DNA from: a bacterium
GTDB lineage: Bacteria > Electryoneota > Electryoneia > Electryoneales > Electryoneaceae
Length of the DNA stretch: 64,000 bases
Assembly: GCA_963675295.2 (NCBI GenBank)
Contig: CAXXKJ010000002.1
Location: 3,904,001-3,968,000 of the forward strand
Reading direction: 5' to 3'
The stretch's first letter is position 1, and the number at the start of each line of letters is the position of its first letter. Both the position numbers and the translations under genes were made by a program. Of this stretch, positions 204-19,180 are shown piece after piece. The notes beneath the pieces were generated by a model, which saw nothing but the letters and a program-made list of their open reading frames with translations, was not told where the DNA came from and searched no databases.

Positions 204-1127
204 TCACTTCTTCTTCGGCTTCGGTGTGGCGTCGTTCCACGCGTTCAAGTCACGTCCGAGGAACTCGGCGAGGCGGTCATTGGCCGGCTTGAAGGTCTCG
301 ACCAGTTTCTCGCGCACATCCTGCGGCATATCCTCATACTTCTCGCGCTTGATGTTAAGCTGCTTGATGTTGCCCCACACCTTGCCCGCGCCGAGGTTGT
401 ACTTGAGGCGGTCACGGAGCCAGCGTGTGGCGGCAAATTTGCCGACGGCGATGTGCATCAGGTAAAACGCCTTCAGCGCGTTTTTTGACCGGATCTGCTT
501 CGCGGTGTTGACGCGTTTGTTGAGGATCTCCAGCGGCACCGGTTCGATCTCGAGGAACGCGCAGAGCTCCTCGTACACTTTCTGGTTGTCCGCCTTGATA
601 TCGTCCATCAGCACGATGTGCATCTGTTCGCGCGGGAAATACTCGAGGAATTTCTCAATCCAGTTGATGTACTGGAAGTATTCCCGTCCCTCCGGCACCT
701 CTTCGAACGCCTGCTCGAACGGCATGTCCACCGGGTGAAACGCGCTGTAGTGGTGGTAGAACGAGTACGCCGCTTCGGTCGGATTGCGGAAGTTGAACAG
801 CAGCTTGGCTTTCGGGTTGTGTTCGTGGATCAGACGCGGGCTGCCCGGATCGTTGAGGTACCGCGGGCTGTACTCACCCTTGATCTGGCCGGGCTGGCAG
901 TGGTCGAACTGCTGTTTCAGCCACTCGATGCCCTTCGGCTTCATCCTGGTTTCGGTGGTACCGAGACGGTGCTGCATATACAGCGGCATCAACTCGAGGA
1001 AGTAGTCGAGCTCCTTGCCGTGTCCGAGGCAGGCCTGCGGATGTTCATCGAGAATTGCCGCGGTCCAGGATGTGCCCGCTTTTGCGGCGCCGACGCCGAC
1101 AAAGTCCAGCTTGAAGTCACTGCTCAT
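204..1127 (-). CDS. PAPS-dependent sulfotransferase
   Basis: 5'-PSB motif GAAKAGTSW, KELDYF, GEYSPRY and 3'-PB motif RNPTEAAYS; ATGA overlap with the upstream paralog. Confidence 0.92.
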   Translation of the reverse strand: MSSDFKLDFVGVGAAKAGTSWTAAILDEHPQACLGHGKELDYFLELMPLYMQHRLGTTETRMKPKGIEWLKQQFDHCQPGQIKGEYSPRYLNDPGSPRLIHEHNPKAKLLFNFRNPTEAAYSFYHHYSAFHPVDMPFEQAFEEVPEGREYFQYINWIEKFLEYFPREQMHIVLMDDIKADNQKVYEELCAFLEIEPVPLEILNKRVNTAKQIRSKNALKAFYLMHIAVGKFAATRWLRDRLKYNLGAGKVWGNIKQLNIKREKYEDMPQDVREKLVETFKPANDRLAEFLGRDLNAWNDATPKPKKK

Positions 1128-2053
1128 TTGGCGGTGGCCCCTTTCGGTTCGGGCATTTTCAGCCAGTGGCTGAGGTCACGGTTCTGCATCTTGCCAACTT
1201 CGATGATGTCGTCGTGGAATTCTTCGATCAGGCGTGCGCGGGTTTCCAGTTTCATCGGCGGATACTTCGCCTCGACGGAATTCCAGCGGCGGATCTTGCG
1301 GGCGATCACGCTCAGTTTCTTCTCCCGCATCCAGTCGCGGATGTTGCGCATCGTCTGGTTCTTGTTGAACAGGTAGTACACCTGAATCGCGAGGTCACGG
1401 ACCTTTGTCGACCGGACCATTGTGCTCGGGTTCACCTTTTTGTTCACCGAGTCGAGTTCGATCTCGTCGATGCCGAGAAACTCGCACAGCTCGCTGTAGA
1501 CGGCGCTCGAATCGGCTTTGATATCATCGAGGAAGATGAACTTGATCTGTTCTTTCGGGAAGTAGTCGAGGTACCGCTTCATGTGCCGCGAATAGCTGTA
1601 GTACTCGATGTGATCGTTGGTGCGGTCGAGCAGTTCCTCGAAGGTCTCATGCACCGTGTGCATCTGAAAGACCTGGTAGTACACGGAATAGACAGCATCC
1701 ACAGGGTTGCGGATGTTCATGATCAGCTTCAGATCTGGATTGTGCTCGGCCAGCAGTTTCGGGCTGGTCGGATCTGCGAGGTAGCTGGTCGACAGTTCGC
1801 CCTTCAACTGTCCGGGCTCACAGCGGCAGTACTGTTCCTCGTACCACTCCATACCACGGCTGTAATTCAATGAATCGAAATGCGAACCTGTCCGTGGAAA
1901 CACACCTTCCAGCGGATGGTTGCGCATGAAGTAGTTCAATTCCTTGCGTCTTCCGATGCAGGTTTGGGGGTGATCCATCAACTGCTTGGTAACCCACGTC
2001 GTTCCTGCTTTTGCAGCACCGACGCCGCAGAAATCAATCTTGAAGTCGCTCAT
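1124..2053 (-). CDS. PAPS-dependent sulfotransferase (paralog of 204-1127)
   Basis: Motifs GAAKAGTTW, KELNYF, GELSTSY and RNPVDAVYS. Confidence 0.92.
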   Translation of the reverse strand: MSDFKIDFCGVGAAKAGTTWVTKQLMDHPQTCIGRRKELNYFMRNHPLEGVFPRTGSHFDSLNYSRGMEWYEEQYCRCEPGQLKGELSTSYLADPTSPKLLAEHNPDLKLIMNIRNPVDAVYSVYYQVFQMHTVHETFEELLDRTNDHIEYYSYSRHMKRYLDYFPKEQIKFIFLDDIKADSSAVYSELCEFLGIDEIELDSVNKKVNPSTMVRSTKVRDLAIQVYYLFNKNQTMRNIRDWMREKKLSVIARKIRRWNSVEAKYPPMKLETRARLIEEFHDDIIEVGKMQNRDLSHWLKMPEPKGATAK

Positions 2054-2276
2054 TCCCTGACTCGTTGTTCAACTCGTTGTTGTCCGATCAGCCTGCCTGA
2101 CCTGGCAGCTGCAGACGGGCCTTTGGAATCGTTGTTGCGTATTCACCGGTAACCAAGTGTGACCCATTGACCCAGCGGAAGTTAGACAGCCGAATGGTTC
2201 CACTCAAGCAAAAGGTTTGGCCAATGCTCACCTTGAGAACACCGTGGCGGAAGGAAGCTGAAAATGCCTGAAAATT

Positions 2277-3458
2277 CTATCTCGTGGCGGCAACGGTTCT
2301 TTTCCCGATTGCGTCCTCGTAGATCTCGATCATGCGCTGGTAGGATGCCTCGGTTGCGTAGGTCTGCTCGAATTCGGTCCGGGCAGCCTTGGAGATACGC
2401 TGCAGCCCAGCCGAATCTCCTTGAATGTCCCGGATTGTGCGGCTCCAAGACGCCGGATCACCGGCCTCGGCGTGCAGGCCGGTGTCACCGTGACGGATCA
2501 TTGTGCCAATGGATCCGATCTTCGAGACCACGATTGGTGTGCCGATGGCGAACGCTTCGAGGATGGTGTACGGCAAGCACTCGTACCAGATGGAAGGAAA
2601 CAGCAGCATGCGCGCGTGTTTCATCAGCTGGTAAACACTCTCCCGCGGTTGCGACCCGAGAAACTCAACGCGAGTCCCCTCCGCTTTCGCACGCAGCTCG
2701 TCCATCAACGGCCCGTCCCCGGCGATCTTCAACGGCAGGCCGGGATCGTCCTGCTTCCACGCGTCCACGAGCGTCGCCACACCCTTTTCGTGCGACAATC
2801 GGCCAACAAACAGTGCGTAGTCCTGCGGATCGTACTGGTAGCCGGGGTCCTCGCTGAGGAAATTCGGCTTGATGACGACTCGTTCCGCAGGCAAGCCTCC
2901 CTCGATGTACTTGTCGCGGGTGAATGGTGTCAGCGCGATGTAGCGGGTGACGTACCGGTTCCACGTGCCCATCATCCGGTGTGTGGTCAGCATCGCGGCG
3001 ACCGCACCGCTGATCTTGCGGTTGTCGCGGTAGCATGCGTGCACAACACCGGGATAAGGCACGAACTTGCCCATGCAATCTTCGCACACCTTGCCGTCCC
3101 GGAAGAACGTCGCCGACGGGCAGAACAGCCTGTAGTTGTGCATCGTCTGGACGACGGGCACCTTTTCAGCAGCGGCGGCATAATAGACCGCCGGGCTGAT
3201 CATGAGGAAGAAATTGTGGACGTGGACGATGTCGGCGTTGTGTTCACGGATGGCCGCACGGATGTCGCGGAAATCCTGCTGGCTCCAGATCATCCGTGTC
3301 GCCACGGCGAGCTGGCCCATGCTGTCGGTTTCGTCGTTGCTGCGCGTGTAGGTACGAACGGCGTGACCTTTGGCCAGCAACAGATCACGCTCGTTCTCGA
3401 AGGCAACCGCTTCGCCGCCGCGCTGCTTGTAATCGTTGTAGACGAGCAGAACTCGCAT
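2277..3458 (-). CDS. Glycosyltransferase family 4 (GT-B)
   Basis: Motifs DIVHVHN, FVGRLSHEKG and PSIWYECLPYTILEA (EX7E). Likely start is MRVLLVYND at 3458; the ORF is open to 3500. Confidence 0.92.
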   Translation of the reverse strand: MRVLLVYNDYKQRGGEAVAFENERDLLLAKGHAVRTYTRSNDETDSMGQLAVATRMIWSQQDFRDIRAAIREHNADIVHVHNFFLMISPAVYYAAAAEKVPVVQTMHNYRLFCPSATFFRDGKVCEDCMGKFVPYPGVVHACYRDNRKISGAVAAMLTTHRMMGTWNRYVTRYIALTPFTRDKYIEGGLPAERVVIKPNFLSEDPGYQYDPQDYALFVGRLSHEKGVATLVDAWKQDDPGLPLKIAGDGPLMDELRAKAEGTRVEFLGSQPRESVYQLMKHARMLLFPSIWYECLPYTILEAFAIGTPIVVSKIGSIGTMIRHGDTGLHAEAGDPASWSRTIRDIQGDSAGLQRISKAARTEFEQTYATEASYQRMIEIYEDAIGKRTVAATR

Positions 3459-3510
3459 GTTCCGGGATCCACCGTGACTCTGCGGGTCGCGAAGCGTCAA
3501 TTGTCGACGT

Positions 3511-5061
3511 TTACCGTGTGAAAACGAACAAGCTCTTCAACTTGAGCGGGTTCTTGTCGTCCGGTACGATCTGGTTATGATGTTCCTGGATGAATCGGTC
3601 GTGCATTGCGTCCGACATGCCCATGATCATGAACGCCATCGCCATCACGAACGGATAGTGCAATGTGTTCGCGGTGATCGATGAGAACGCGATCAGGAAA
3701 ATCGAGAGAAATCCCGCCATCGACCAGTAGGCCTGGACGTAATTCCCCCTGTCATCGTGGAATTTCCATCTGAACCATAGCTGCAACGTCAGGTATACAT
3801 AGAAGATCAGCAGAATCCCCGCGCCGACGACACCGAAATCGTGCCATACCTGCAGGTATTCGTTGTGCGGCGGATATTCCTGCTGGAACTTTTGTGCGGA
3901 CATCGCTTCACCGATGTTCCGGCGGGCGGTTCCCGGTCCCTGGCCGAAGATCGGCGCATCCATCGCGCTGTTGATCGTGTGTGGCCAGAGCTTGGAGAAG
4001 CGGCCGGACGAGTCAAACGTGATGAGGAACTCGGTCATGTTCTGCGGCAGACGACCGTTCTTGAACATGCGGGCACGGAAGGCCGGCACGGCAACGAACA
4101 GGCTGACGATCAGCGTACCGCCGATAAGTACTGCCGTGACCAGGCGCATGAAGTGCCGTGGCCGGTTGCGTGAGATCACGACGAGCATCATGCCGGTGCC
4201 CAGTGCCATGCGGGATAGCGTGATGAACACGGTTCCGAGGAACAGCAGCGAATAGAACAAGCCGACACGGCGCTGTTTCGGGTCTGGATGGTACCGCCAG
4301 CGTGCCAGCGGAATCGGCAGAATGGTAGAGGTGAAGAGCGCGACGGTACGCGCGACGACGTCGCCGTCCGGGCCGTTCGCCGTCATCACCAGGCCGCCGG
4401 TGGCGAAAAACCAGCCGAACATCCACATCACGATGAAGATGTTGTTGCGAATCAGCCAGTCGGTGTGTTCGAAGCGTTTCAGGTCAGCGTTGAGGAAATA
4501 GTTATAGGTGAACATCCCGATGATCATCGGGAGCGCGTACCACACCAGGTCCTTGTCGCCGGTACCGACAGAGCCCTTGACGACGTAAATGATCATGCCG
4601 TACGCAAGGAACACCATGTATAGCCAGTACTTGCGCTGGATTCCCTTGTTCCGGAAATAGTAGAGGTTGATGACACCGGCGATGAAGGTGATCAGCGCCC
4701 AGCGCATGCCCGAGGTGGACATGGTGGTGCCGCCGATGTTCATGTTGCCGATGTTCTTGACGATCGTCGAGGTGGAAGCGGAGATGACGGTGAAGTACAC
4801 CAGCAGCAGCGGTTTCAGGATCGAAATCGCGCACAGAATGATAATCACGTATCCCGCGATGATCATCGGCAGGACGTCCGGCTTGACCATCTGCGGCACG
4901 ACGCCCAGAATGAACGCGAACAACAGCAGGCCCATGATGAAGATGCTGCGCCAGAACAGCATCAACATGTAGCCGTAATCCTTGCTCTTCAGCTTCCCGA
5001 AGATGGTATTTGCAGAAGTATCCACAGCACTACCCTGGATTGAAAAATGTGCACCTGACAC
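3511..5061 (-). CDS. wzy: Wzy polymerase / O-antigen ligase-like membrane protein
   Basis: Many transmembrane segments; TLSRMAL, SSGR, PIFGQGPG and PHNEYLQ motifs of the Wzy_C/WaaL family; capsule-locus context. Confidence 0.8.
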   Translation of the reverse strand: MSGAHFSIQGSAVDTSANTIFGKLKSKDYGYMLMLFWRSIFIMGLLLFAFILGVVPQMVKPDVLPMIIAGYVIIILCAISILKPLLLVYFTVISASTSTIVKNIGNMNIGGTTMSTSGMRWALITFIAGVINLYYFRNKGIQRKYWLYMVFLAYGMIIYVVKGSVGTGDKDLVWYALPMIIGMFTYNYFLNADLKRFEHTDWLIRNNIFIVMWMFGWFFATGGLVMTANGPDGDVVARTVALFTSTILPIPLARWRYHPDPKQRRVGLFYSLLFLGTVFITLSRMALGTGMMLVVISRNRPRHFMRLVTAVLIGGTLIVSLFVAVPAFRARMFKNGRLPQNMTEFLITFDSSGRFSKLWPHTINSAMDAPIFGQGPGTARRNIGEAMSAQKFQQEYPPHNEYLQVWHDFGVVGAGILLIFYVYLTLQLWFRWKFHDDRGNYVQAYWSMAGFLSIFLIAFSSITANTLHYPFVMAMAFMIMGMSDAMHDRFIQEHHNQIVPDDKNPLKLKSLFVFTR

Positions 5062-5078
5062 TACTCGGTACAGTCTGA

Positions 5079-6857
5079 CTATTGTTCGGCACGTATGGTC
5101 GAGTGCGACCCTTCGACCAACTCCTGCCAGACGTCAAACCCGAAACGTTTATTGCCGGCTTCGATGCAGGCATTTGGCTTGGGATGGACCCACGTGTTGT
5201 AATCCGACTCGACCGACTGCAGGAACGGCTTCATCTGCTGCTGGTTGATATTGGTCCAGAACAGGTTCTGCGCCGGTGCGGTCGCGACAATCGTGTTGTT
5301 CCTGAATGTAAGCTGCCGGTAGTCCATTTCCTCGGTCTGACCGGTAACTCGTGTATCAATCATCCGGCCATAGCCTCGCAGGTAGATCTGGTTGCGGCCG
5401 TTGCCGATGATCTGGTTGTCGACCAGTGCGATGCGCCTTGAATTGGCGATGCGCACTCCGCCGACGTTGTTGTTGTCGATCTCGCAATTTGTGACGAGGA
5501 TCGGGCCGCGGGTCGCCTCGAGGAAGAGACCGTCCACGTAATTCCGTTTCATGACGCAGTTGTCGATCAGCACGTGCAGGTTGTCATGGTCAAACCAGAT
5601 GCCGAACGTGAGGTTGTCCACCGCCTCATGGTTGCGAATGATGGTGTTCGCGGTGTTGAGGATCTTGATCCCGGCTATGGCCCACGAGTAGGTCTCGCCC
5701 CAGTCGCCGCGCCAGTTGTTTTCGTTGGTGACGCAATCCTCGATCAATAGATCGATGATGTACGCCATGTCAATGCCCTGCGCGCCATTGTTGTTCGCTT
5801 CACAGTCGCGCAACGTGACGTTCTTGCTGTTGTACAGCCCGAGACCGCGATAGTTGTTCGTGTTGAAGCGGCAATTTTCCAGCAGCAGGTTCTCGCAGCC
5901 GCGAATCCACGCCGCCCGTTGCTCGACCATCGTCGCGGCGTGCTGGAAGGTGATGTTGCGCAGGGTGGTGTTCATCGCCTGCATCAACTCGAATACCAGC
6001 GGACGCTCGCCGACCTCGATTGTAGCATCATTCAGCGACAAACCGGCGGGCAGATCGAGCCACAGCTTGTCGTTTGTCTCGTCCACGAAGTACGTACCGT
6101 CCGCCAGCTCATTGCTGCTGAGCACCTGGCGCATGACATCGCCATTGACGATCACGATCTCACGACGTTTGAACAACGGGCCGGAATTCTTGATCCAGTC
6201 GCGGTGCTTCTCCTTCATCCACTCATTCTGCTTCTTCCACGCCTCGGTCTCGGTGACCAGACCCCAGTCGAACTGCCATGAGTGGGTGAACCGTCCATTC
6301 CCAGCGGATTGCCAGCCAGTGTAGATCTCGGAGCCGTCAATCGCGACATCACCGATGCCCTCGATCAACAGTTTGGTGTCCGGGTCCTTGCCCATGCTCA
6401 GGCGTGCGTGTTCACGGTACACGCCTTCATGGATCCGCACATGAATGAAGCTCGCGCCGTTCGCCTTCTGCCGCGCCAGCTTGAGCGCGCTGTCGATGGT
6501 CTTCAGCGGCGCGTCCGGCGTGCCCGGGTTGTTGTCGCTGGCGTTGGCGTGGTTCTGATCGACGACGATGCGCACGACTTCGCTTTCCAGCGCGGGAACT
6601 TCGCCGGCGCCGGGCGTCTCGGTGACCGTCGGGCTGGCGATGCGGGCGTTGTAATCGAGCGCGGGCAGATCCTTGTCCGCCGCACCGCTGCTCTTGTCGC
6701 CACCACCCCAATCATCCGGCTGGCCGGACTCGTCCTCGCCGGAGCGGTTGCCGGGCTGCTTGCCTGCCTTGGATCCAGCGCAGCCGTTGGCCACCAGCAG
6801 CAGCAGCAACACTGCCAGCGTGGTTAGAAACGTCGTATGTCGCGAACGCATCATCAT
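5079..6857 (-). CDS. Lipoprotein with right-handed parallel beta-helix (pectin-lyase fold), putative polysaccharide lyase or modifier
   Basis: Lipobox-like LLVANGC, low-complexity linker, NPGTPDAPLKTI and IHEGVYRE, then Asn-ladder PbH1 repeats (e.g. GIWFDHDNLHVLIDNC). Confidence 0.8.
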   Translation of the reverse strand: MMMRSRHTTFLTTLAVLLLLLVANGCAGSKAGKQPGNRSGEDESGQPDDWGGGDKSSGAADKDLPALDYNARIASPTVTETPGAGEVPALESEVVRIVVDQNHANASDNNPGTPDAPLKTIDSALKLARQKANGASFIHVRIHEGVYREHARLSMGKDPDTKLLIEGIGDVAIDGSEIYTGWQSAGNGRFTHSWQFDWGLVTETEAWKKQNEWMKEKHRDWIKNSGPLFKRREIVIVNGDVMRQVLSSNELADGTYFVDETNDKLWLDLPAGLSLNDATIEVGERPLVFELMQAMNTTLRNITFQHAATMVEQRAAWIRGCENLLLENCRFNTNNYRGLGLYNSKNVTLRDCEANNNGAQGIDMAYIIDLLIEDCVTNENNWRGDWGETYSWAIAGIKILNTANTIIRNHEAVDNLTFGIWFDHDNLHVLIDNCVMKRNYVDGLFLEATRGPILVTNCEIDNNNVGGVRIANSRRIALVDNQIIGNGRNQIYLRGYGRMIDTRVTGQTEEMDYRQLTFRNNTIVATAPAQNLFWTNINQQQMKPFLQSVESDYNTWVHPKPNACIEAGNKRFGFDVWQELVEGSHSTIRAEQ

Positions 6858-6911
6858 GCGTGAACTTCCTGTTGATTCCCGGGATAAGGTGCGAAGGTAA
6901 CCAGTGCCGGC

Positions 6912-7799
6912 CTACCGCATCGCTTCCCACTCGAAGGACGTTCCGAGGTGAGAGTATAAGGCCTGGTTGGATTCGGCAAAATAGTCGTACATCCAGTCCC
7001 GAACACCCGGGTCAAGCTGCTTGTAGTTGGCCATGTTGAGCCGCCGGAACGAGTCCGGTTCCCACTTGGGCAGGTTGAGGAACTCGAGCACCCGCGGCAT
7101 CACGGTTTCCGGCCGTTCGAAATAGTCCTCGGCCTTTAGAACAAGCATCTGCGCGCGTGGGAACATCTTCTCCCAGCGTTGCAACTGTTCAAGGTAGCGG
7201 CCGCGTGTGAGGTACGAATGATGGATGCGCCGGACGCCCATGAAACGGGTGTCGAGCATCCGTCGCCGTTGCTCCTCACCGATCCATTCTTCCTCGACCT
7301 TCGCGGCTTCCTCGAACGAACGTGTCTCGCCCCAGTAGCGGACGGCGTGCTGATAATGCGAATACGCACGGTCCACCGGGTTGCGCAGCAGCACTACCAG
7401 CTTCGCCTGCGACTCGAAGCGCTTGATCCGCCGTGGGGCGTGCGGATCGAACAGGTACGATGGGCTGGCTTCGCCGGTCAGCGTTTCGCCCCGTTTCTTC
7501 GCCGTCTTCTCCAGCGGGAAATGCGCCAGGTACCAGCGCCGTCCACGTTCGTAGTGGAAATCGAAGAAGCGGATTTCCTTGGACAACGGCTCTGCGATCA
7601 TCGGATGCTGGATGAGATTGTTGAACAGCGACGTGGTGCCGGCCTTCATCGACCCGATCAGGAAGAAAGACGGCTTCAGCCGCAACCCGGCCGTCGGACG
7701 CCGCGAGGCGACCAGCAGCTCTTTCGCCAGCGCACGTACGGAGACAGACACGTTCGCCTCGCGCGCCTTGTCGCGCATCAGATTCAGCGAATCGCCCAT
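6912..7799 (-). CDS. Sulfotransferase resembling the heparan-sulfate 3-O/N-sulfotransferase fold
   Basis: Motifs PSFFLIGSMKAGTTSL, KEIRFFD, GEASPSY and LRNPVDRAYSHY. Confidence 0.92.
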   Translation of the reverse strand: MGDSLNLMRDKAREANVSVSVRALAKELLVASRRPTAGLRLKPSFFLIGSMKAGTTSLFNNLIQHPMIAEPLSKEIRFFDFHYERGRRWYLAHFPLEKTAKKRGETLTGEASPSYLFDPHAPRRIKRFESQAKLVVLLRNPVDRAYSHYQHAVRYWGETRSFEEAAKVEEEWIGEEQRRRMLDTRFMGVRRIHHSYLTRGRYLEQLQRWEKMFPRAQMLVLKAEDYFERPETVMPRVLEFLNLPKWEPDSFRRLNMANYKQLDPGVRDWMYDYFAESNQALYSHLGTSFEWEAMR

Positions 7800-7800
7800 C

Positions 7801-8715
7801 TCAGATATCCCAGTTGAAGGTGAGGCCCGTCATCGCTTCCAACTGTTTTTTCTCATCGGCAAAGGTGGCACGCAACTTCTCCCGCGTTGCCAGGTTCATC
7901 GCCGGATAGGGCACGCTGTTGTCCGTGCGCAATACCGGGAACTGATGAACCGGTAGATCGAGGAAGTCGATCACTTCGTCAAGAACCTCCGGCATGTGCA
8001 GGAAGAACCGTTCCGCCGGAATGATCATCATCTGTTCGCGTGAGAACAGCTTCAGCCAGCGTTCCAGCTGCTTCGTGTACATCCCGCGTTCGATATAGGC
8101 GTAGCGCTGGTAATCGGTACTGACATAGGCTGGATTTTTCAGCATCCGTTCCGCTTCGCCGTGTGTCCGCTTGGCTTCGGCGGCCAGTGCATCCTCGAAG
8201 TTCAGCGGTTCCTGCCCCAGTTGCACCTGTCGCTGGTAGTCCGAATAGGCACGGTCGATCGGATTCCGCAGCAACACCACCAGTTTTACCTTCGGCAGCG
8301 CCTGGTGCATCCGTTCCGGCACCCGAGGCTCGAACAGGTAGTAGGGACTCGCTTCGCCCCAGCGGTGCTTCGGGCCGTAACGTACCCAGCGGTACAGCGG
8401 GAAGTGTGACTTGTACCAGTCCAGCCCCTTTTCGTAATTGAGGTCAAAAAAATGGACTTCCTTGACGACGGATTGGGTAACGGACGGATGGCCGGAGAGA
8501 ATGTTGAACAGGCTTGTTGTGCCCGCCCGTTGCGCGCCGATAATGACGAAATCGGGGAAGCGGCAGTCGGACGCAATCATGCGGCGGAACGCGAAAATGC
8601 TGCGCCGGACGAATCGGGTCACCGTTCGCTTGAGTGGACGGTTGGCCGGGATATGCCGGCCGAGTGAACGTTCCTCAACGACCATGGTCGGTTCAGACGA
8701 AAATGGGATAGCCAT
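7801..8715 (-). CDS. Sulfotransferase (paralog of 6912-7799)
   Basis: Motifs PDFVIIGAQRAGTTSL, KEVHFFD, GEASPYY and LRNPIDRAYSDY. Confidence 0.92.
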   Translation of the reverse strand: MAIPFSSEPTMVVEERSLGRHIPANRPLKRTVTRFVRRSIFAFRRMIASDCRFPDFVIIGAQRAGTTSLFNILSGHPSVTQSVVKEVHFFDLNYEKGLDWYKSHFPLYRWVRYGPKHRWGEASPYYLFEPRVPERMHQALPKVKLVVLLRNPIDRAYSDYQRQVQLGQEPLNFEDALAAEAKRTHGEAERMLKNPAYVSTDYQRYAYIERGMYTKQLERWLKLFSREQMMIIPAERFFLHMPEVLDEVIDFLDLPVHQFPVLRTDNSVPYPAMNLATREKLRATFADEKKQLEAMTGLTFNWDI

Positions 8716-11385: not shown

Positions 11386-11406
11386 ATAGAGTCTTGCAAC
11401 TGGCGG

Positions 11407-13632
11407 CTAAGCGGTTTCCTTCTCGCTTCGTGCCTTTTCCGTGTAGTACTTCTTCGCACCGTAGTATTCGTTGAAGAACCGGCCGTAATAGTACTTGCTG
11501 CTCAGCTTGTTGACCTTGATGCCGTTGAAGACGACGCCGAAGAGGCGGCCATCCACCTGGTCTACCTGGGCGATACAGCTGCGCAGGTCGGCCATCGTGT
11601 TCTTCTCCATCAGCGCGACCAGCACCAGACCGTCCGACTTCGAGGTCAGGATCTTGGCGTCGATGGCGACGTGGATCGGCGGCGCGTCAAGGATGACGGT
11701 GTCGTATTCCTGCTTCGCGCGGGCGATGAACCGGTTCATCGACTCGGAGGCGAGCAGGTCGGACGGGCTCGGCGTACGTGAACCGGCCGGTACGACGGTC
11801 AGGTTTTCGTGCATCGTCTTACGGAACACTTCGTCCCATTCGCACTGTCCGACGAGCAGGTCGGACAGGCCCGGGGTACGTTCCACATCGAAGAGGCGGT
11901 GCTGATCCGGGACGCGGAGGTCGCAGTCCACCAGCAGCGTCTTCTTGCCGCCCATGGCGAAGGCCAGCGACAGGTTGCAGCTGGTCAGCGTCTTACCGTC
12001 CGCATGGTCGGCCGACGAAATCGTGAAGCATTCCAGCGGCTTGTCGACGGCGGAGAAGACGAGGCCCGTACGCAGGGAGCGGTAACTCTCGACGGACGGA
12101 TCCTGCGGCTGCATGTACGCGATAATCGGGTACGGCTTGCCGCTGCTACTGATCACCGGCTTGTGACCGTTACCGTGCGTAAACTCAACCTTCTTCGCGT
12201 TGATGAAGGGGATCATGCCGAGCACGCTGACGTTGAGCTCCTTCTGGATCTCGTCGGTGCTCTTGATGGTGTTGTCGAACAGGTCCGCGAGGTACGCACC
12301 GAAGGACGCGACCATCAGCGCGACCATCACGCTCATGATCAGGCGAAGCATCGTCTGCGGGTCTTCCGGCTGTTCCGGGATATACGGCGGGTCGATCACC
12401 TTGACGCCGCCGGTTTCGGAGGCGGCCTGGACGCGAGTTTCCTCGCGTTTGGTCATCATCAGGTCGTACGTCTGCTGCAGCACGGCACGCGAACGCTGCA
12501 TGCGGGAATACTCGAGGGCTGATTCGAGCAGGTCCGGATGCTGGCGCTGGTAGTCTTTGATCTGCGCGTTGACGTAATCAATCTTGTTGCGCAGGTTGGC
12601 GAGCTGCACTTCCGCTTCGGTGAGGCGGGTAATGACCGACGCCAGCTTGGCCCCGCGTTCCGCCTTGAGGCTGGAGCTTCCGGCGTTGGATGTCATCGCC
12701 GTGACGAGATTCTGCTGCGCGACGTCGATCTGGTTCAAGATCGATTCGCGTTCCGGGCTGTCTTCCGGGAGCTGCACAAGGCGTGCTTCCAGATTCTGCA
12801 GGTCCAGGCGAATCTGCTTGACCAGCGGGTTGTCCATCCCGCCGAGCTCAGCGGCTGAACTCTCGGTCAGGTTGCGGTATTCTTCGCTGTAGGTCTTGTG
12901 GTTCAGCTCAGTCAATGACAGCTGGACCTCAGCCTCGGCCAGTTCATCCTGTAAAGCATAGAGACGTGAGTAAACGCTGCTTTCGAGCAGGTTGCCGGGA
13001 GTGATCTGGTTCTTTTCCTCGAACTGTTTCACTTCCCGTTCAACGATCTCCATCTCTTCGCTGAGCAGCGCAAGCTGTTGGTCGAGGAAGACAATGGTAT
13101 TGTTCAACTCCTGGACCTGCAAGCTGGCCGATCGTGCCTGGAACACGTCCACAGCGTGCTTTACCAGTGCGTAGGCGGCAGTCGGGTCGGACAACTCGGC
13201 GGTGATATCGAGGAAGGATCCGTTCTTCTGGATGTTAAAATCAACGGCCTTGTTGACTTCCTTCTCGATGGTTGGTTTTGCTACCGGCTCATAGCCAGCC
13301 GCATCCAGCGATTCTTCGAGCTGTCGCAGGAAGAATTCACTATGGATGATGGAGTTGAAGTAGTCCTGGGGGACTACGGTGCTCATCCCGGGAATCAACG
13401 TGCTCGTGGCCATGGCCTGCGGGCTCGTCTGCACACCGAACATCAGCGTGGCCTTGGAGATGTACACCGGGGGCAGGCGCAGGACGATAAACACGCCCGC
13501 GGCCAGCGTCACGACAAAGAACACGACGAACAGGACGAGGTGCTTGAGCAGCGCCCCCATTACCCGTTCGTAAATGTCACGCGCGCTGAGCGACTCAGCC
13601 TGCTGGAACAGATCGGTACTCTTGGTATTCAA
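11407..13632 (-). CDS. wzc: Wzc polysaccharide co-polymerase / BY-kinase
   Basis: Two transmembrane helices flank a coiled coil; ESYRSLRT, Walker A ADHADGKT, A' LVDCDLR, B ILDAPP, and a C-terminal Tyr cluster YYYGRFFNEYYGAKKYY. Confidence 0.93.
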   Translation of the reverse strand: MNTKSTDLFQQAESLSARDIYERVMGALLKHLVLFVVFFVVTLAAGVFIVLRLPPVYISKATLMFGVQTSPQAMATSTLIPGMSTVVPQDYFNSIIHSEFFLRQLEESLDAAGYEPVAKPTIEKEVNKAVDFNIQKNGSFLDITAELSDPTAAYALVKHAVDVFQARSASLQVQELNNTIVFLDQQLALLSEEMEIVEREVKQFEEKNQITPGNLLESSVYSRLYALQDELAEAEVQLSLTELNHKTYSEEYRNLTESSAAELGGMDNPLVKQIRLDLQNLEARLVQLPEDSPERESILNQIDVAQQNLVTAMTSNAGSSSLKAERGAKLASVITRLTEAEVQLANLRNKIDYVNAQIKDYQRQHPDLLESALEYSRMQRSRAVLQQTYDLMMTKREETRVQAASETGGVKVIDPPYIPEQPEDPQTMLRLIMSVMVALMVASFGAYLADLFDNTIKSTDEIQKELNVSVLGMIPFINAKKVEFTHGNGHKPVISSSGKPYPIIAYMQPQDPSVESYRSLRTGLVFSAVDKPLECFTISSADHADGKTLTSCNLSLAFAMGGKKTLLVDCDLRVPDQHRLFDVERTPGLSDLLVGQCEWDEVFRKTMHENLTVVPAGSRTPSPSDLLASESMNRFIARAKQEYDTVILDAPPIHVAIDAKILTSKSDGLVLVALMEKNTMADLRSCIAQVDQVDGRLFGVVFNGIKVNKLSSKYYYGRFFNEYYGAKKYYTEKARSEKETA

Positions 13633-13766
13633 CAGTCAGCCCACTCGTTTGGAACCGTCATCTGGACAGGATCACCGCAGCCGGTTTTCCCATCAACTCG
13701 ATCACGACATTCTCGTGATCTTCCGCAACCCGGACGTTGTCGTCCGACGGTAACGGAAGACTACCC

Positions 13767-14783
13767 TCAATTGTTGTCCAGCCGGTCGATACGCAGGTAG
13801 ATCAGGTATGCGCTGGCGATGACGCTGACGTCACGCAGCATTTGAAGCATCCTGTCCCACGTAAAGAACGGATCGTACAGGGAAACGATGATCACATCGC
13901 CGCCGCTGACCGGCGGGATCTGCGCGATCTGCGCTTCCTCGATAATTTCATCCAGGTCCAGTTCCGTCTCCCGGTATACGCCCGGCGACGTCATGAACAG
14001 GTGCTTGATGTTCGACCTGTCGGCATCGGGACGGAACCCGCCGGCGAGCAGCACCATGTTGAGCACGTTCGAATCGGCGTAGGGGACGTAGTTTCCCGGT
14101 TTGTTAACCCAACCTACAACCATCACCGACGAGTTGTTGGTGATCGAGGGCACAATAATGATGTCATCTTCCTGGAGCTTCGGCAGATCTTTCAGATCAC
14201 CACTTGCGAGAAACTCGCGGAGGTTGGCGTCAATGCGCTTCCACTCGGTTTCGCCGCTGGCGCTGGTTCCGGTGGGCCGCAGGATGTGTACCCCGCTCGG
14301 ATCGGCGTGATCCGCTGGACCGCCGGCGAGAGAAATTGCCGATTGCACGTCCGTGTTCACCGGAATCTGCACGAGGCCCGGCTGGCGGACCTGTCCGAGT
14401 ACCTGCACCTTGATGGTGTAGTTCTCCGGGATTTCGACCACTACGACGGGGTTATCCATGTATCGTCGCAGAATGGTGACCAGCAAGGTCTGCATCTCGG
14501 TGGTCGTCATGCCGACAACCGGGATTTCAGTGATGTACGGGTACGGCACGGTGCCGTCATCCCGGACTTTGAGCAACCGGTTGAATTCAGGAGCTCCCAG
14601 CACACTGATCTGCAGGTGATCTCCGACATCGATGGTGCGCGCGGCTCGCGCATCCGGAATCAGGGTTAACGCCATGACCAAGGCCAGGAACAGCACGGCC
14701 ATGACCCGTTTTGCAGGCGCCCCAGACAATCCTCTACCCCTCGTCAATCTCAGCTCCTGTTCATGCGGTCCGTGTAAGCTCAA
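13767..14783 (-). CDS. wza: Wza/OPX polysaccharide export protein (Poly_export + SLBB)
   Basis: GDHLQISV, VRDDGTVPYPYI, VQVLGQVRQPG, GWVNKPGNY and GDVIIV motifs; amphipathic C-terminal helix. True start uncertain (possibly about 14703). Confidence 0.88.
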   Translation of the reverse strand: MSLHGPHEQELRLTRGRGLSGAPAKRVMAVLFLALVMALTLIPDARAARTIDVGDHLQISVLGAPEFNRLLKVRDDGTVPYPYITEIPVVGMTTTEMQTLLVTILRRYMDNPVVVVEIPENYTIKVQVLGQVRQPGLVQIPVNTDVQSAISLAGGPADHADPSGVHILRPTGTSASGETEWKRIDANLREFLASGDLKDLPKLQEDDIIIVPSITNNSSVMVVGWVNKPGNYVPYADSNVLNMVLLAGGFRPDADRSNIKHLFMTSPGVYRETELDLDEIIEEAQIAQIPPVSGGDVIIVSLYDPFFTWDRMLQMLRDVSVIASAYLIYLRIDRLDNN

Positions 14784-14891
14784 CGGATCCGCGGTTTCTG
14801 CGCCCTGGTTTCGCAGGATGTCCGGCCATGTTAGCGCAGAAATCGCACATCCTTATAAAGTGTCGAAAAAGCTCCGAATCTCCAAAAGGAA

Positions 14892-16580
14892 TCAGAGATT
14901 ATAGGTAAAACCAGCCAGGAACAAGGCGAGAGTTTCGTTTTCCACCCGCGTGAGCCCGGCTCGTGTTTGTAACACCAGATTTTCCAATGGTTCCCACTCA
15001 ACCGCCACCTCTCCCCGCCAAGCCGTTGTCTCATCTCCGGCAAGGAGTGGATAGCTTGTGTCGCGTGCCCGTACCGGCACCAGCTCGTAGATGTTGCCGC
15101 CGACCGGATCTTCACCCGGAATTGACTCACCGTGACGCAGCCGTTGCCCCATGGCGGTGACCTGCCATGTTCCGCCGAATTTCTGGTTGAAACTCAGTGT
15201 CAGGGCGTCGCTGTTCGGTGGAATCGGCGATCCGAGCGCAGTTCCATTGTGGGCGTAAACACTCACTGCAAACCAGTGGGAATACACATACGGCCTAAGT
15301 CGAGTAAGGTGCAGTTGCAGCATGCTTCCGCGCAACCCCACTGGCTCGATAACGTCCATCCCCAGCGCAAAAGCCGTACGGTTATGCAACTGGTTGGTAA
15401 ACAGGCCACTCATCGAGGTCTCGTCCAGCAATCCCTCGAAATAGAAAGCCCATCCACGCAGAGGCTGCACCCGCAAATCCACACCCCAGGCGACGTTGTC
15501 ATCCCGATCCTGATGGTGGTTTTCCGACCAGAAGATGTTCAACGGAATCATGTAACCGATTTCCGGGTCCCGTTCCGCGTAAATCACCGTCTCGCTGAGC
15601 CCGACCTGCAGCCAGGGCCTGGGATTGACTTCAAGCCGGTGCGCCGCGAACCACTTCTGATTCACCACCTTGCGCCGTTTGCCACTCGGTGAAACGTAGT
15701 AGATCTCATCTTCGACCGGATACGGATCCAGCCGGGCATGAAAGTAATCAAACACAAGCCATGGTTTCACCTGCGCTCTCAGTTGCAGGTAGAGGTACGC
15801 CGGCGCTTCTCCGGAGACGATCAGTCCACGATCCAGCGACGGGCCGCGTTCCATCCGGTCCCGTCCGACGCCAACGTCCACAAACTCGCTGTGGTATTCG
15901 AGGTACGCCAGGGTCTCATCGAACGATGAGGATGCCCCGGCCGGCGACACCGAGGCGACGTACCCCGGAGTCGGGCTGTAAGCTCCGCGTGCTTTGTTTT
16001 GATTGTATTCGGCGGTGTCGGTAAAACGCACTCCGGCGGTCCACGAGTTGCCGAGTGCCGCCTGCACGTCGATACCGATCACCGAGCGCAGCAACGGATC
16101 GTCGTTGTAGTCCTCGTCGTAGATGCCGTGCCAGGCGATGATCGGGTCGACGGTGAAGCTGAGCTCATCCTTCCGCATGCCGTAGAGGTGTGCGCCGTGC
16201 TTGAACAGTGGCGATCCAGAGGGGATGACGTTGTCCCAGCGGGTTTGGTCCGGCACCAGGGACTCGTTCTGGCCGTACACGGCGATCTCGCTCAGTAACT
16301 CGTCGAGTTCCGCCTGTTCGCTGGGTGGCAGTTTATCGCGGTTGGTGTTACACTCCCGCAGTCGTTCGATCAAAACCGGCAGGGATTCGGGACGAACCGT
16401 GGGTGGTGGTTGTTCGGTGACGCCGTAGAGCCAGGCTCGGTTGAGGAACTCGTACACGGAATGATCAGCGTACAATCCGGCTTGCGCGGGGACATTCAGC
16501 GCAACGAGAGAGCACGCGAGCAGGATCGCGGACACAAAAAGCCGCTGGATCTGGATCATTCTCTTCGTATGATTCGGCAC
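14892..16580 (-). CDS. wzi: Wzi-like capsule-assembly outer-membrane beta-barrel
   Basis: Signal peptide; GRDRMERGP, AAHRLE, GLSETVIY and LGSPIPPNSD motifs; beta-signal end GFTYNL; first gene of the capsule operon. Confidence 0.75.
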   Translation of the reverse strand: MPNHTKRMIQIQRLFVSAILLACSLVALNVPAQAGLYADHSVYEFLNRAWLYGVTEQPPPTVRPESLPVLIERLRECNTNRDKLPPSEQAELDELLSEIAVYGQNESLVPDQTRWDNVIPSGSPLFKHGAHLYGMRKDELSFTVDPIIAWHGIYDEDYNDDPLLRSVIGIDVQAALGNSWTAGVRFTDTAEYNQNKARGAYSPTPGYVASVSPAGASSSFDETLAYLEYHSEFVDVGVGRDRMERGPSLDRGLIVSGEAPAYLYLQLRAQVKPWLVFDYFHARLDPYPVEDEIYYVSPSGKRRKVVNQKWFAAHRLEVNPRPWLQVGLSETVIYAERDPEIGYMIPLNIFWSENHHQDRDDNVAWGVDLRVQPLRGWAFYFEGLLDETSMSGLFTNQLHNRTAFALGMDVIEPVGLRGSMLQLHLTRLRPYVYSHWFAVSVYAHNGTALGSPIPPNSDALTLSFNQKFGGTWQVTAMGQRLRHGESIPGEDPVGGNIYELVPVRARDTSYPLLAGDETTAWRGEVAVEWEPLENLVLQTRAGLTRVENETLALFLAGFTYNL

Positions 16581-16952
16581 GCCTTACTCGCGGTTTGGTG
16601 ACCGTATTCGACTCAGCCCTTTGTACTTCATTCAAGGTAGCTTACGCAAGCTTTGAGCCGCGAGTGATGGGAGTCACCACATTCGTGATTCCTTTATAAC
16701 ATGTTATCGCCATCTGGCACATGCAAGCGAAATTCGTACGGAGGCGAAATACCTAAATCTGATATCCTCTGGAGCCGTCTCAAGTGCATGACGCTGAAAT
16801 CAGAGGGGTTACCCGCGGAACGTCTAACAATAAAATGACAAAATTAGTGATATTCAGCTTGCACGTAATAGTTAGCGTGCGCTAGTTTGCAGAGTTGCTT
16901 TCTCGGCGCGGTGTACCCAACGTTCATGAAACGGTGACAAAGGGAATATAGT

Positions 16953-17732
16953 TTGCGGGCAGCCGATTCGATAAAGCTGTTGGGTGTAAAGGTCAGCAGC
17001 GTATCGCTGGATCAAGCTGTAGGTGTGATCGAGCAATGGATCCGGAAATCAGAAGCGAATTATGTCACCTGCACCGGCATGCACGGTGTGATGGAGAGCC
17101 AGGCAGATGAGGCGATCCGTCAAATTCACAACAAGGCGGGAATGGTTGTCCCCGACGGCATGCCGCTGGTGTGGATGAATCATTATCATGGCCGCCGCCA
17201 CGTGACCCGTTGTTACGGTCCGGATTTGTTCCTGGCGGTGCTTCAGCGCAGTGTGGAGAATGATGCGGGTTTCAAGCACTTCTTCTACGGTGGCGCTGAG
17301 GGTGTGCCGGAGATGTTGGCAGAGCGAATGCGTGAGAAATTTCCCGCTCTGCAGGTTGCAGGTACCTGGTCTCCTCCGTTCCGTCCATTGACGCCGGAAG
17401 AAGATGAACAGGTAGTGAAGATGATCCGCGATTCAGGTGCGGACATCGTGTGGATTGGCCTGAGCACACCGAAACAGGAGCGGTGGATGGCTGACCACGT
17501 GGAGAAGTTGGGCCGGCCCGTGCTGATCGGGGTTGGCGCAGCGTTTGATTTTTATACCGGGAGAGTGACCCAGGCCCCGCGTTGGATTCAGCGGAGCGGG
17601 TTGGAGTGGTTCTTCCGGATGGTGATGGAGCCACGGCGCTTATGGAAACGGTACTTAAAGAACGTCCCGTTATTCCTGATACTGGTCATTCGGGAAATGG
17701 CCACAGGAAAACGCCAGTACCCCCACCGGTGA
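16953..17732 (+). CDS. WecG/TagA/CpsF family glycosyltransferase (GT26)
   Basis: Motifs VPDGMPLVW, GPDLF, IGLSTPKQE, GVGAAFDF and GLEWFFR..EPRRLWKRY. Confidence 0.93.
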   Translation: MRAADSIKLLGVKVSSVSLDQAVGVIEQWIRKSEANYVTCTGMHGVMESQADEAIRQIHNKAGMVVPDGMPLVWMNHYHGRRHVTRCYGPDLFLAVLQRSVENDAGFKHFFYGGAEGVPEMLAERMREKFPALQVAGTWSPPFRPLTPEEDEQVVKMIRDSGADIVWIGLSTPKQERWMADHVEKLGRPVLIGVGAAFDFYTGRVTQAPRWIQRSGLEWFFRMVMEPRRLWKRYLKNVPLFLILVIREMATGKRQYPHR

Positions 17733-19180
17733 TCAAGCGGCAGACGGCATCGAGTTCCTCGCGGAATTTCATGCGGATTCTGTTGGTTGTTATCGACATG
17801 GTTACGGTCTATGCAGGGATCGTCCTCTCCCTCTACGTTGCCCGATTGCTGAACTTGTTTGACGCCGGCATTCCGGTCAAGGATCTGGCTGAAGGTGTGT
17901 TGCGTCCTATTCCCAGGGACCATGTTCTCGTCTACGGGGCGATTTCGTCCGTGCTCGCGGTCATCATCATGTGGTGGCAGGGCACGTACAACCCCAGTCT
18001 TAATCACATGAAGCTGGACGGTGACCGTCGTTTCATCCGTTCGTTGACGATGGTCATGCTGGTAACCTTCCCGCCGTTCCTGTATGTGCAGAACCAGTTT
18101 GACACGCGTGGGATGCTGACCGCCGCGATTGTGGTCGTTCCGGTATTGCTGATCCTGCAGAAAACGCTGTCCGTCGCGTTCATTTCGAAGCATTATGACC
18201 GTCCTGTACGCACCCACAAGCTGTTGATTGTCGGCGCGCACAAGGAGGGTCCGTACGTTCTGCGGCAAGCGTTATCCTGCTGGGACCCGGGCTACCTGCC
18301 GGTGGGCTTCCTGTCGAAAGATCCGGTGCAGAACGGGGATTACATCGAAACCGAGAGCCGGGGCCTGGTGGGCTCGGTGCCTGTGCTCGGGGATTACAGC
18401 CAGCTGGAACACTTCATCAAGCGGCACGCGATCGAGGAAGTCTGGATTAACGATCCGGAGATGCCGCAGGATGAGATCGTTGACATTTTGCGGCTATGCG
18501 AGCATCGCGGTGTGGTTACCAGCATGCTGCCGAGTATCGGCCGTATCCCGACGATGTCGGTGACCGCGACCTATGCCGGTGGGCAGGTGTTGCTGCGTGA
18601 ACGCCGGGCGCCGGAACGCATCTACTACGACAAGATGAAGCGCGCGGTGGACTTCATCGCGTCCACCCTGATGCTGATCGGCCTGTCGCCGATTTTGATC
18701 CTGGTCGCAATCTGGGTCAAACTCGACAGCAAGGGGCCGGTGTTCTTCTCGCAGGAACGTGTTGGCAAGAACGGCAAGCCGTTCCGGATGTTCAAGTTCC
18801 GCAGCATGCACGTGAACGCGCCGAAGTATGCTGTCAGTCCGAGCAGCAAGCTCGATCCGCGGATCACACGATCGGGCCGTTTCCTCCGGAAGAGTTCGCT
18901 GGACGAGTTGCCGCAGCTGTTCAACGTGTTCAAGGGCGACATGAGCCTCGTCGGCCCGCGTCCGGAGATGCCATTCATCGTTGACCAGTACACACGGTTC
19001 CAGCGTGCACGGCTGCAGGTGAAGCCGGGCATTACGGGGCTGTGGCAGATCTCGGCGGACCGTTCGATCGCCATCCACGACAACCTGGACTACGACCTGT
19101 ACTACATCCAGAACCGTTCGCTGACAACGGACATGGTGATTCTGTGGCGCACGGTGTGGTTTGCGATTCATGGGATCTAA
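17729..19180 (+). CDS. Priming polyprenyl-phosphate glycosylphosphotransferase (WcaJ/WbaP-like)
   Basis: N-terminal transmembrane helices; KRAVD, KFRSM, SLDELPQLFNVFKGDMSLVGPRP and KPGITGLWQ motifs. The GTG at 17729 overlaps the upstream stop (GTGA). Confidence 0.93.
   Translation: MIKRQTASSSSRNFMRILLVVIDMVTVYAGIVLSLYVARLLNLFDAGIPVKDLAEGVLRPIPRDHVLVYGAISSVLAVIIMWWQGTYNPSLNHMKLDGDRRFIRSLTMVMLVTFPPFLYVQNQFDTRGMLTAAIVVVPVLLILQKTLSVAFISKHYDRPVRTHKLLIVGAHKEGPYVLRQALSCWDPGYLPVGFLSKDPVQNGDYIETESRGLVGSVPVLGDYSQLEHFIKRHAIEEVWINDPEMPQDEIVDILRLCEHRGVVTSMLPSIGRIPTMSVTATYAGGQVLLRERRAPERIYYDKMKRAVDFIASTLMLIGLSPILILVAIWVKLDSKGPVFFSQERVGKNGKPFRMFKFRSMHVNAPKYAVSPSSKLDPRITRSGRFLRKSSLDELPQLFNVFKGDMSLVGPRPEMPFIVDQYTRFQRARLQVKPGITGLWQISADRSIAIHDNLDYDLYYIQNRSLTTDMVILWRTVWFAIHGI

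Follow-up and report, generated by a model that had tools for sequence, protein, structure and literature searches.

The window analysed here is a 64,000-nucleotide stretch of a bacterial genome from the Electryoneaceae (GenBank assembly GCA_963675295.2, contig CAXXKJ010000002.1, positions 3,904,001 to 3,968,000 of the forward strand), and its first part, window positions 204-19180, contains a candidate locus for the synthesis and export of a sulfated surface polysaccharide. Read along the minus strand, the locus has the order wzi-wza-wzc-wzx-ST1-ST2-ST3-beta-helix lipoprotein-wzy-GT4-ST4-ST5 (where ST denotes a sulfotransferase and GT a glycosyltransferase), a run of 12 closely spaced genes from 16580 down to 204, and a wecG gene and a priming transferase gene are encoded divergently on the plus strand at 16953-19180. 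The original prediction for this DNA, made from its letters alone, had described the gene order, strands and coordinates in just this way. The features are as follows (aa, amino acids; PAPS, 3'-phosphoadenosine 5'-phosphosulfate):

125..154, no strand: hairpin with a 13-bp stem, directly past the ST5 stop codon
204..1127, minus strand: ST5, a 307-aa PAPS-type sulfotransferase (Sulfotransfer_1, 65.2 bits; motifs KAGTS, RNPTEAAYS and KELDYF)
1124..2053, minus strand: ST4, a 309-aa PAPS-type sulfotransferase (Sulfotransfer_1, 81.4 bits)
2277..3500, minus strand: GT4-family glycosyltransferase, a family of the retaining fold (Glycos_transf_1, 103.7 bits, and Glyco_transf_4)
3511..5061, minus strand: Wzy-type polymerase, a multi-pass membrane protein (Wzy_C, 63.5 bits; 68 hydrophobic windows)
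5079..6857, minus strand: right-handed beta-helix lipoprotein (Beta_helix, 78.4 bits)
6912..7799, minus strand: ST3, a 295-aa PAPS-type sulfotransferase (Sulfotransfer_1, 69.6 bits; motifs KAGTT, RNPVDRAYS and KEIRFF)
7801..8715, minus strand: ST2, a 304-aa sulfotransferase that resembles the heparan-sulfate 3-O-sulfotransferases (3-OST) and N-deacetylase/N-sulfotransferases (NDST)
8693..9634, minus strand: ST1, a 313-aa Sulfotransfer_3-type sulfotransferase (56 bits; motifs RSGTT and RDPRAVSFS)
9643..11193, minus strand: Wzx flippase of the MOP family (Polysacc_synt, 76.3 bits; Polysacc_synt_3, 70.6 bits)
11407..13632, minus strand: Wzc, a PCP-2a co-polymerase with a C-terminal tyrosine autokinase (GNVR and AAA_31; TIGR01007, 169.8 bits against a cut-off of 108)
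13767..14783, minus strand: Wza-type outer-membrane polysaccharide export protein (Poly_export, 55.9 bits; SLBB, 65.3 bits)
14892..16580, minus strand: Wzi-like outer-membrane protein whose gene heads the operon (Caps_assemb_Wzi over residues 172-551, 43 bits with the cut-off at 30.1)
16953..17732, plus strand: glycosyltransferase of the GT26 (WecG/TagA/CpsF) family, divergent from wzi (Glyco_tran_WecG, 206.6 bits; TIGR00696, 177.8 against a cut-off of 69)
17582..19180, plus strand: priming polyprenyl-phosphate sugar-1-phosphate transferase (Bac_transf, 230.4 bits, and CoA_binding_3; TIGR03025, 368.6 against a cut-off of 295.55)
19214..19247, no strand: hairpin with a 15-bp stem, directly past the stop codon of the priming transferase

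Profile searches, proposed earlier as a check, recovered the expected Pfam family above its curated cut-off in all 14 locus proteins. NCBIfam agrees with Pfam, likewise above cut-off, for the priming transferase, the kinase domain of Wzc and the GT26 enzyme, and has no family for Wzi, Wzy or any of the five STs. The spacing of the minus-strand genes is tight: wzx and ST1 are separated by an 8-base gap, ST1 and ST2 overlap by 23 bases, ST2 and ST3 are 1 base apart, and ST4 and ST5 overlap by 4 bases. A hairpin scan of the region showed no long-stem hairpin inside the operon, and the two strongest hairpins of the region lie exactly at the ends of the locus; the one at 125-154 is a terminator-like operon end that is common to the operon and the convergent polyketide-synthase (PKS) gene upstream. 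For GT4, wza, wzx and the priming transferase, the start taken from the longest frame is probably too far upstream. The GT4 gene, whose orthologue in a related locus (L005, see below) encodes 393 aa, probably starts at 3458; for the priming transferase, 17642 and 17771 are possible starts in place of 17582.

Only three genes of the locus are of the glycosyltransferase type, namely those for the priming transferase, the GT26 enzyme and the GT4 enzyme. This count, which formed part of the original prediction, is borne out by the flanks, as no further GT gene is present in the 20 kb upstream, which encode two PKSs, an SLBB-domain protein of 523 aa and a protein of 532 aa that matches no Pfam family, or in the 5.7 kb downstream. 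The nearest other GT-like gene encodes an ArnT/PMT_2-type membrane glycosyltransferase 5.7 kb past the locus (24861-26432) and is probably unrelated to the assembly of the repeat unit.

All five STs score above the curated cut-off of Sulfotransfer_1 and/or Sulfotransfer_3, and all five contain both the 5'-phosphosulfate-binding motif (5'-PSB, [KR][AS]G[TS][TS]) and the 3'-phosphate-binding motif (3'-PB, R[ND]P....S). The maximum Kyte-Doolittle mean over 19-residue windows is at most 1.08 in each of them; as no window exceeds this value, the STs are predicted to lack both a signal peptide and a membrane helix. The motif and hydrophobicity scans therefore confirm the two properties first ascribed to these proteins, namely intact PAPS motifs and the lack of a signal peptide. 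The five enzymes belong to three sequence types: ST1 alone, which shows no relation to the other four at the BLAST level; ST2 with ST3 (37% pairwise identity); and ST4 with ST5 (39%), the identity between the two pairs being ~25-27%.

ST2 to ST5 resemble, at the sequence level, the 3-O- and N-sulfotransferases that act on heparan sulfate in animals. The best solved relatives of ST2 are the heparan-sulfate enzymes 3-OST-5 (3bd9, E-value 9.3e-27), 3-OST-3, 3-OST-1 and NDST1 (E-values from 9e-27 to 2e-20), and its KEVHFFD segment aligns with QEIHFFD of 3-OST-5. ST4 is closest to a bacterial ST of structural-genomics origin (3rnl, 3.7e-20), followed by heparan-sulfate 3-OST-3 (2e-13). The motif KE..[FY]F, whose glutamate we take to be the catalytic base, is kept in ST2 to ST5; no candidate catalytic base was identified in ST1, which has only weak PDB matches to the ST domains of an olefin synthase (5.9e-6) and of CurM (7.1e-4). 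The animal enzymes (3bd9, 1t8t, 1zrh, 1nst) have the 5'-PSB, 3'-PB and KE..FF motifs in common with their relatives among the STs of the window; unlike them, the STs of the window are predicted to be soluble cytoplasmic proteins without a Golgi membrane anchor, and have no deacetylase partner in the locus. N-sulfation was also considered, and is unsupported because the locus contains no deacetylase gene. As the ST4-type family is very large (25,652 representative clusters at E<=0.001, 9,188 at 1e-10 and 245 at 1e-30), these enzymes do not constitute a new family.

The lack of a PAPS pathway in the source genome (4.81 Mb in 2 contigs, 92.8% complete; G000 in the coordinates below) would have counted against a sulfated capsule. 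The search revealed both enzymes of the pathway, with 2 matches each to ATP sulfurylase and adenosine 5'-phosphosulfate (APS) kinase, and one 581-aa frame that contains both domains. Across the genome there are 13 PF00685 matches and 1 further match to PF13469 only. Five of these STs fall within the 9.5 kb of the locus that they occupy, the Poisson expectation for any 19-kb stretch being ~0.055, and their clustering is not due to chance. A second large glycan cluster (G000:C2:585001-612000; L009 and L010) codes for three of the other STs, among them a 787-aa fusion with a GT4 domain, and in addition for a 1567-aa GT2/glycerophosphotransferase fusion, a GDP-mannose dehydratase, a DegT aminotransferase, a formyltransferase and several methyltransferases. 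A further surface-glycan cluster (G000:C2:46001-66000; L012) contains two NeuB-type nonulosonic acid synthases and a Wzy_C protein along with ST matches at C2:55939-56547 and C2:63954-64538, and the remaining STs are single or beside other genes. The genome also shows 6 sulfatase matches at E<=1e-10.

Two related loci, L005 and L006, both from uncultured bacteria, were recovered when species-representative genomes were scanned. Synteny among relatives had been suggested earlier as a check, and it holds for these two: all 13 genes from wecG to ST5 are collinear in both loci, with amino-acid identities of ~95% (range about 90-99%) in L005 and 57-91% in L006 (the priming transferase lies beyond the fetched flank and is not among the 13). 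Judged from these comparisons the locus is under strong purifying selection, the ratio of nonsynonymous to synonymous substitution rates (dN/dS) against L005 being 0.017-0.108 for all 13 genes and lowest for ST1 (0.017); the corresponding ratios against L006 are of little use, as dS is saturated (1.4-3.6) and the ratio is not computable for ST2 and ST3.

Orthologues of the Wzy protein are present in all 3 other genomes of the genus, in none of 12 from other genera of the family, and in 2 of 25 from other families of the phylum, where one match is strong (G032) and the other marginal (G016, E 5.8e-4). ST genes are a trait of the family as a whole: matches at E<=1e-8 occur in 15 of its 15 other genomes versus 4 of the 25 genomes from the other families of the phylum, and there are 7-9 per genome in the genus versus 1-5 in the rest of the family. 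In a tree of the Sulfotransfer_1-type STs, ST2, ST3, ST4 and ST5 form four clades (ultrafast bootstrap 95-100), each of which contains all four genus genomes. This distribution implies that the four paralogues predate the genus and that none has been lost since, which in turn argues that they are not redundant.

The fourth genus member, G003 (86% complete and fragmented), carries a variant of the locus (L014, G003:C10:20001-38208, and L022, G003:C243) that reads wzx-ST1-ST2-ST3-wzy-ST4 followed by two ST5-type genes, giving six STs; a separate short contig carries wecG, the beginning of wzi and the priming transferase gene. This locus contains neither a beta-helix gene nor a GT4 gene, nor any remnants of the two. 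The nearest GT4 gene of that genome (51% identity) is on another contig, beside a polysaccharide deacetylase, and the nearest relative of the beta-helix protein (34%) is likewise encoded elsewhere. The GT4 and beta-helix genes thus appear to have been lost together in this species, and the ST5-type gene to have been duplicated. In G032, which belongs to another family of the same phylum, one contig has the order beta-helix-wzy-ST-GT4-epimerase-wecG-priming transferase, and a second has wzx-ST-unknown-MBOAT with wzi, wza and wzc nearby; the core of the system together with at least two STs therefore predates the genus.

In the beta-helix protein a hydrophobic leader precedes a Cys, after which comes a stretch rich in Gly, Asp, Glu and Pro, and close orthologues keep both the Cys and the stretch; this arrangement fits a lipoprotein on a flexible tether. 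Its AlphaFold2 model is a confident one (pLDDT 86.9), in which residues 1-8 and 21-61 are disordered. The top Foldseek matches of the model are the GH120 xylosidase XylC (TM 0.59), the hydrolase BT_1002, AlgE4 and AlgE6, an alginate epimerase/lyase, capsule depolymerases (the K1 capsule lyase among them) and AlgG, of which AlgE4, AlgE6 and AlgG are mannuronan C5-epimerases. Going by the model, the protein is predicted to be a periplasmic enzyme active on polysaccharide, be it a hydrolase, a lyase or a C5-epimerase, all of which match the fold.

A search of 5.8 billion proteins returned only 12 relatives of the beta-helix protein at E<=1e-5. A metagenome scan with the alignment of this protein yielded 32 loci at 27-37% identity. 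In 6 of these (L028, L029, L031, L034, L037 and L051) a GT4 gene (40-43%) and a WecG gene (43-51% identity to the window proteins) come after the beta-helix gene and share its strand; most of the other contigs are shorter than 10 kb. Four of the six (L029, L031, L034 and L037), picked for the pattern rather than at random, were scanned with Pfam. A Wzy_C gene directly precedes the beta-helix gene in 3 of the 4, and the segment between the beta-helix gene and the GT4-WecG pair codes for methyltransferases in L029 and L037, for an acyltransferase and an 850-aa GT4 protein in L031, and for two proteins without a Pfam family and a deacetylase in L034. The last of these loci also has an ST gene immediately ahead of Wzy_C, and encodes a CysQ-like phosphatase close to where the contig begins. 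The recurring module in these four loci may be written GT4-Wzy-beta-helix-(methyl, acyl, deacetyl or sulfo modifier)-GT4-WecG, sometimes with a MurJ-like flippase. The 243 open reading frames (ORFs) of the 32 loci include 1 ST; the count was made by phmmer with 16 diverse ST queries, because BLAST with the five STs of the window missed the ST of L034 that Pfam had found. A comparable metagenome scan with the Wzy alignment gave 581 pattern matches and no relatives among them. The beta-helix protein, Wzy, GT4, WecG and the priming transferase thus look like a widespread and as yet unnamed polysaccharide chassis with variable decoration, which the lineage of the window has loaded with STs.

Taking the gene content into account, we interpret the locus as encoding a complete Wzx/Wzy-dependent pathway of the group-1-capsule type, and consider it likely that its product is a surface polysaccharide with several sulfate esters per short repeat unit. 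We infer the following course of synthesis, and with it the acceptor of the STs, the order of the steps, the number of sugars, and the positions and degree of sulfation. The priming transferase would load a sugar-1-phosphate onto undecaprenyl phosphate at the inner side of the membrane. On the resulting undecaprenyl diphosphate, the GT26 enzyme would contribute the second sugar and the GT4 enzyme the third. The five soluble STs would then sulfate different positions of the lipid-linked unit, as their location and the retention of the paralogues suggest, with PAPS supplied by the ATP sulfurylase and APS kinase of the genome. Sulfation is expected to precede flipping, as originally proposed, since both the STs and PAPS are cytoplasmic. 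The unit would be flipped by Wzx and polymerised by Wzy under the control of the tyrosine kinase Wzc, which has 7 Tyr in its last 30 residues, and the polymer would be exported by Wza and may be held on the cell by Wzi. In the periplasm the tethered beta-helix lipoprotein would trim, cleave or epimerise the polymer.

If each ST placed one sulfate on a three-sugar unit, the product would have ~1.7 sulfates per sugar, which exceeds heparin. Within the genus, five STs occur with GT4 and the beta-helix gene in three genomes, and six STs without either of these two in the fourth. A more specific proposal, which we put forward tentatively and hold to be somewhat doubtful, is that the polysaccharide of the genus has a repeat of two or three sugars bearing ~1.5 or more sulfates for each sugar, in a pattern that varies between species. 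Sulfation and not the sugar composition would then be the main variable of the surface polymer, a 'sulfation code' reached by adding STs to the widespread beta-helix/Wzy/GT4/WecG chassis, which bears methyl or acyl groups in other loci. A polymer with ~1.5 sulfates per sugar would likewise be denser in sulfate than heparin.

Several observations weigh against the main interpretation of the locus. Eight sequencing runs were listed as containing this DNA and none of them is of RNA, which says nothing for or against expression. The locus proteins include no enzyme of nucleotide-sugar synthesis, deacetylase, PAPS enzyme or regulator. The Wzi match is modest (43 bits), and the anchoring of the polymer to the cell, as claimed in the original prediction, depends solely on it. 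A gene for the phosphatase Wzb is absent from the locus, none of whose 14 proteins has an LMWPc or PHP domain. There are 4 LMWPc matches elsewhere in the genome; one gene of this low-molecular-weight phosphatase family neighbours the gene for the fused ATP sulfurylase/APS kinase and is transcribed from the other strand (G000:C2:1828391-1830806). The Wzy_C domain is common to polymerases and O-antigen ligases, and we know of no ST of these types with a known acceptor. Furthermore, G003, where six STs stand against just two visible transferase genes, indicates that gene counts are a weak guide to the number of sugars: read literally its locus would specify a persulfated disaccharide, and it is therefore likely that GTs encoded elsewhere take part or that sulfation is non-stoichiometric. 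The repeat of about three sugars that was proposed earlier had been reached by just such counting, and is weakened by the lack of GT4 in the G003 locus and by the additional GT4 genes of related loci. No precursor gene in the locus points to the amino-sugar or uronic backbone envisaged along with it; UDP-GlcNAc 2-epimerase and UDP-sugar dehydrogenases are encoded only at sites distant from the locus, and the sequence of a GT26 enzyme does not reveal its sugar donor. A three-sugar repeat and the analogy to glycosaminoglycans may hold, and are best treated as conjectures.

A first alternative is a sulfated polysaccharide with a longer or branched repeat, to which GTs encoded elsewhere contribute or one GT adds sugars repeatedly, and in which sulfation is moderate and partly sub-stoichiometric, as in heparan sulfate. 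The G003 locus, which keeps wzx, wzy and six STs with its nearest GT4 gene on another contig beside a deacetylase, is consistent with this, as are the 2 or 3 GT4 genes in addition to WecG in related metagenomic loci and the other GT-rich glycan clusters of the genome. However, the priming transferase, WecG and GT4 travel with this Wzy lineage in G032, 6 of the 32 metagenomic loci have the GT4-WecG pair downstream of their beta-helix gene, and the flanks of the locus to 20 kb upstream and 5.7 kb downstream contain no other GT, on account of which we regard a longer repeat as unlikely. A departure of another kind concerns the nature of the product, which could be a sulfated O-antigen-like or lipid-anchored glycan, with the Wzy_C protein acting as the ligase, or a free slime in place of an anchored capsule. 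The membership of Wzy_C in the O-antigen ligase domain family, the low-scoring Wzi and the missing wzb gene would all accord with such a product; as against this, the wzi-wza-wzc head of the operon, the Tyr cluster of the bacterial tyrosine kinase and the outer-membrane polysaccharide export protein resemble the export systems of group-1-type capsules and exopolysaccharides and not O-antigen assembly, and this makes it improbable.

It is also conceivable that some or all of the STs act on a different target, such as a lipid or glycolipid made by the neighbouring polyketide or polyunsaturated fatty acid (PUFA)-type synthases, or a protein-linked glycan. Two giant PKS/PUFA-synthase-like genes (G000:C2:3888269-3903910) are oriented convergently with ST5 and stop 90 bases short of the window. 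The first encodes 2638 aa with an enoyl reductase-like NMO domain, ketosynthase (KS), acyltransferase (AT), acyl carrier protein (ACP) and ketoreductase (KR) domains; the second encodes 2459 aa with KS, AT, phosphopantetheinyl transferase, ACP and thioesterase domains. Their adjacency to the locus is kept in L006 (17717-20827) and in G003 (L014:11-9316), and the only solved relatives of ST1 are the olefin-synthase and CurM ST domains. Nevertheless, the PKS genes are on the opposite strand and past a strong hairpin, ST1 is 8.5 kb away from them, where it follows wzx by 8 bases and overlaps ST2, and ST2 to ST5 resemble carbohydrate STs and not the ST domains of PKSs. Since synteny inside one genus is weak evidence of function, and G032 keeps its STs beside wzx and wzy, a target of the STs other than the exported polysaccharide appears highly unlikely, and sulfation of the Wzx/Wzy-dependent repeat unit is the reading that we retain.

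The original prediction overstated the rarity of such systems, as clusters for sulfated polysaccharides have been published for cyanobacteria, Vibrio, Pontiella and Actinoplanes and, reportedly, for Cobetia, where Cobetia marina is said to make a sulfated capsule (PMC11766843). The group 1 capsule loci of E. coli K30 and Klebsiella have the order wzi-wza-wzb-wzc followed by wzx, wzy and GT genes. The locus described here is like them in its wzi, wza and wzc head followed by flippase, polymerase and GT genes, and unlike them in that it lacks wzb, has five STs and a beta-helix lipoprotein inserted, and encodes the priming transferase and GT26 enzyme divergently.

Among sulfated polymers, the synechan (xss) system of Synechocystis sp. 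PCC 6803 is also specified by a Wzx/Wzy cluster with STs among GT, flippase, polymerase and co-polymerase genes, and in the published model the lipid-linked unit is, as proposed here, modified in the cytoplasm before it is flipped (PMC8205485). Synechan is described as having 8 GTs and 2 STs, with a sugar to sulfate ratio of ~8:2, so that gene counts match composition, as opposed to the 3 GT-type genes and 5 STs of the present locus; its outer-membrane exporter is reported to be encoded outside the cluster, whereas wza and wzi are inside the locus of the window, and the lineage is different (PMC8205485). Synechan also has the regulators XssQ, XssR and XssS (PMC8205485), to which the window locus has no counterpart: none of the locus proteins, nor any ORF scanned out to 24.7 kb, showed a regulator domain, the rest of the genome not having been searched. 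The wps-1 cluster of Actinoplanes missouriensis, as reported, likewise combines Wzx/Wzy genes with STs of different families, one of them of the heparan-sulfate type, and a glycoside hydrolase gene; there the sulfation is a prediction only, the host is a monoderm actinomycete, and the cluster has 2 STs and a GH26 hydrolase in place of the five STs and beta-helix protein seen here (PMC13390465).

Vibrio sp. KMM 8419 and Pontiella are, like the lineage of the window, non-cyanobacterial and carry ST genes in glycan clusters, and their reports state that sulfated polysaccharides were detected chemically. In the former the structure of a sulfated capsule was, according to the authors, solved by NMR. 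Unlike the present locus, which has no PAPS genes, the Vibrio system as described has cysNDC within the cluster; it follows an ABC-transporter route, and its 3 STs are spread over 80 genes (PMC11641403). In Pontiella, for which sulfated glycosaminoglycan-like exopolymers are reported, the cluster is described as having 1 ST among 8 GTs, so that the ST:GT ratio of the window locus is far higher (PMC7356697). One review lists six bacterial genera as reported makers of sulfated polysaccharides (PMC11625862). No cluster with more STs than GTs turned up in the literature searched, a finding that speaks for that literature and not for everything in print. The kind of locus is thus already known, and its distinctive traits are the highest ST:GT ratio among the clusters compared, the five- and six-ST variants, the four heparan-sulfate-type STs and the uncultured lineage.

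If the proposed pathway is correct, a compact gene set of 19 kb would allow a bacterium to make a very densely sulfated polymer by means of five soluble STs, which probably differ in position specificity and four of which are related to the animal heparan-sulfate enzymes. STs of this sort are in demand for a production of heparin-like materials that does not depend on animal tissue. An uncultured lineage would also join the short list of makers, and not only degraders, of sulfated glycans. What makes the locus valuable is its extreme ratio of STs to GTs, together with the occurrence in nature of variants with five and with six STs, and the methyl- and acyltransferases in the same slots of related loci show how a common polysaccharide chassis is re-decorated.

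Beyond the locus, the window contains two adjacent multihaem cytochrome c genes at 26760-29762 (488 and 505 aa). Type IX secretion sorting domains occur in the window and hint, though only loosely, at a kinship with the Bacteroidota group. The G+C content of positions 50001-56000 is 0.50-0.54, compared with 0.56-0.62 in the rest of the window; this segment codes for a protein with a type IX secretion sorting domain (51364-53232) along with ORFs that have no Pfam family, and may represent acquired DNA.

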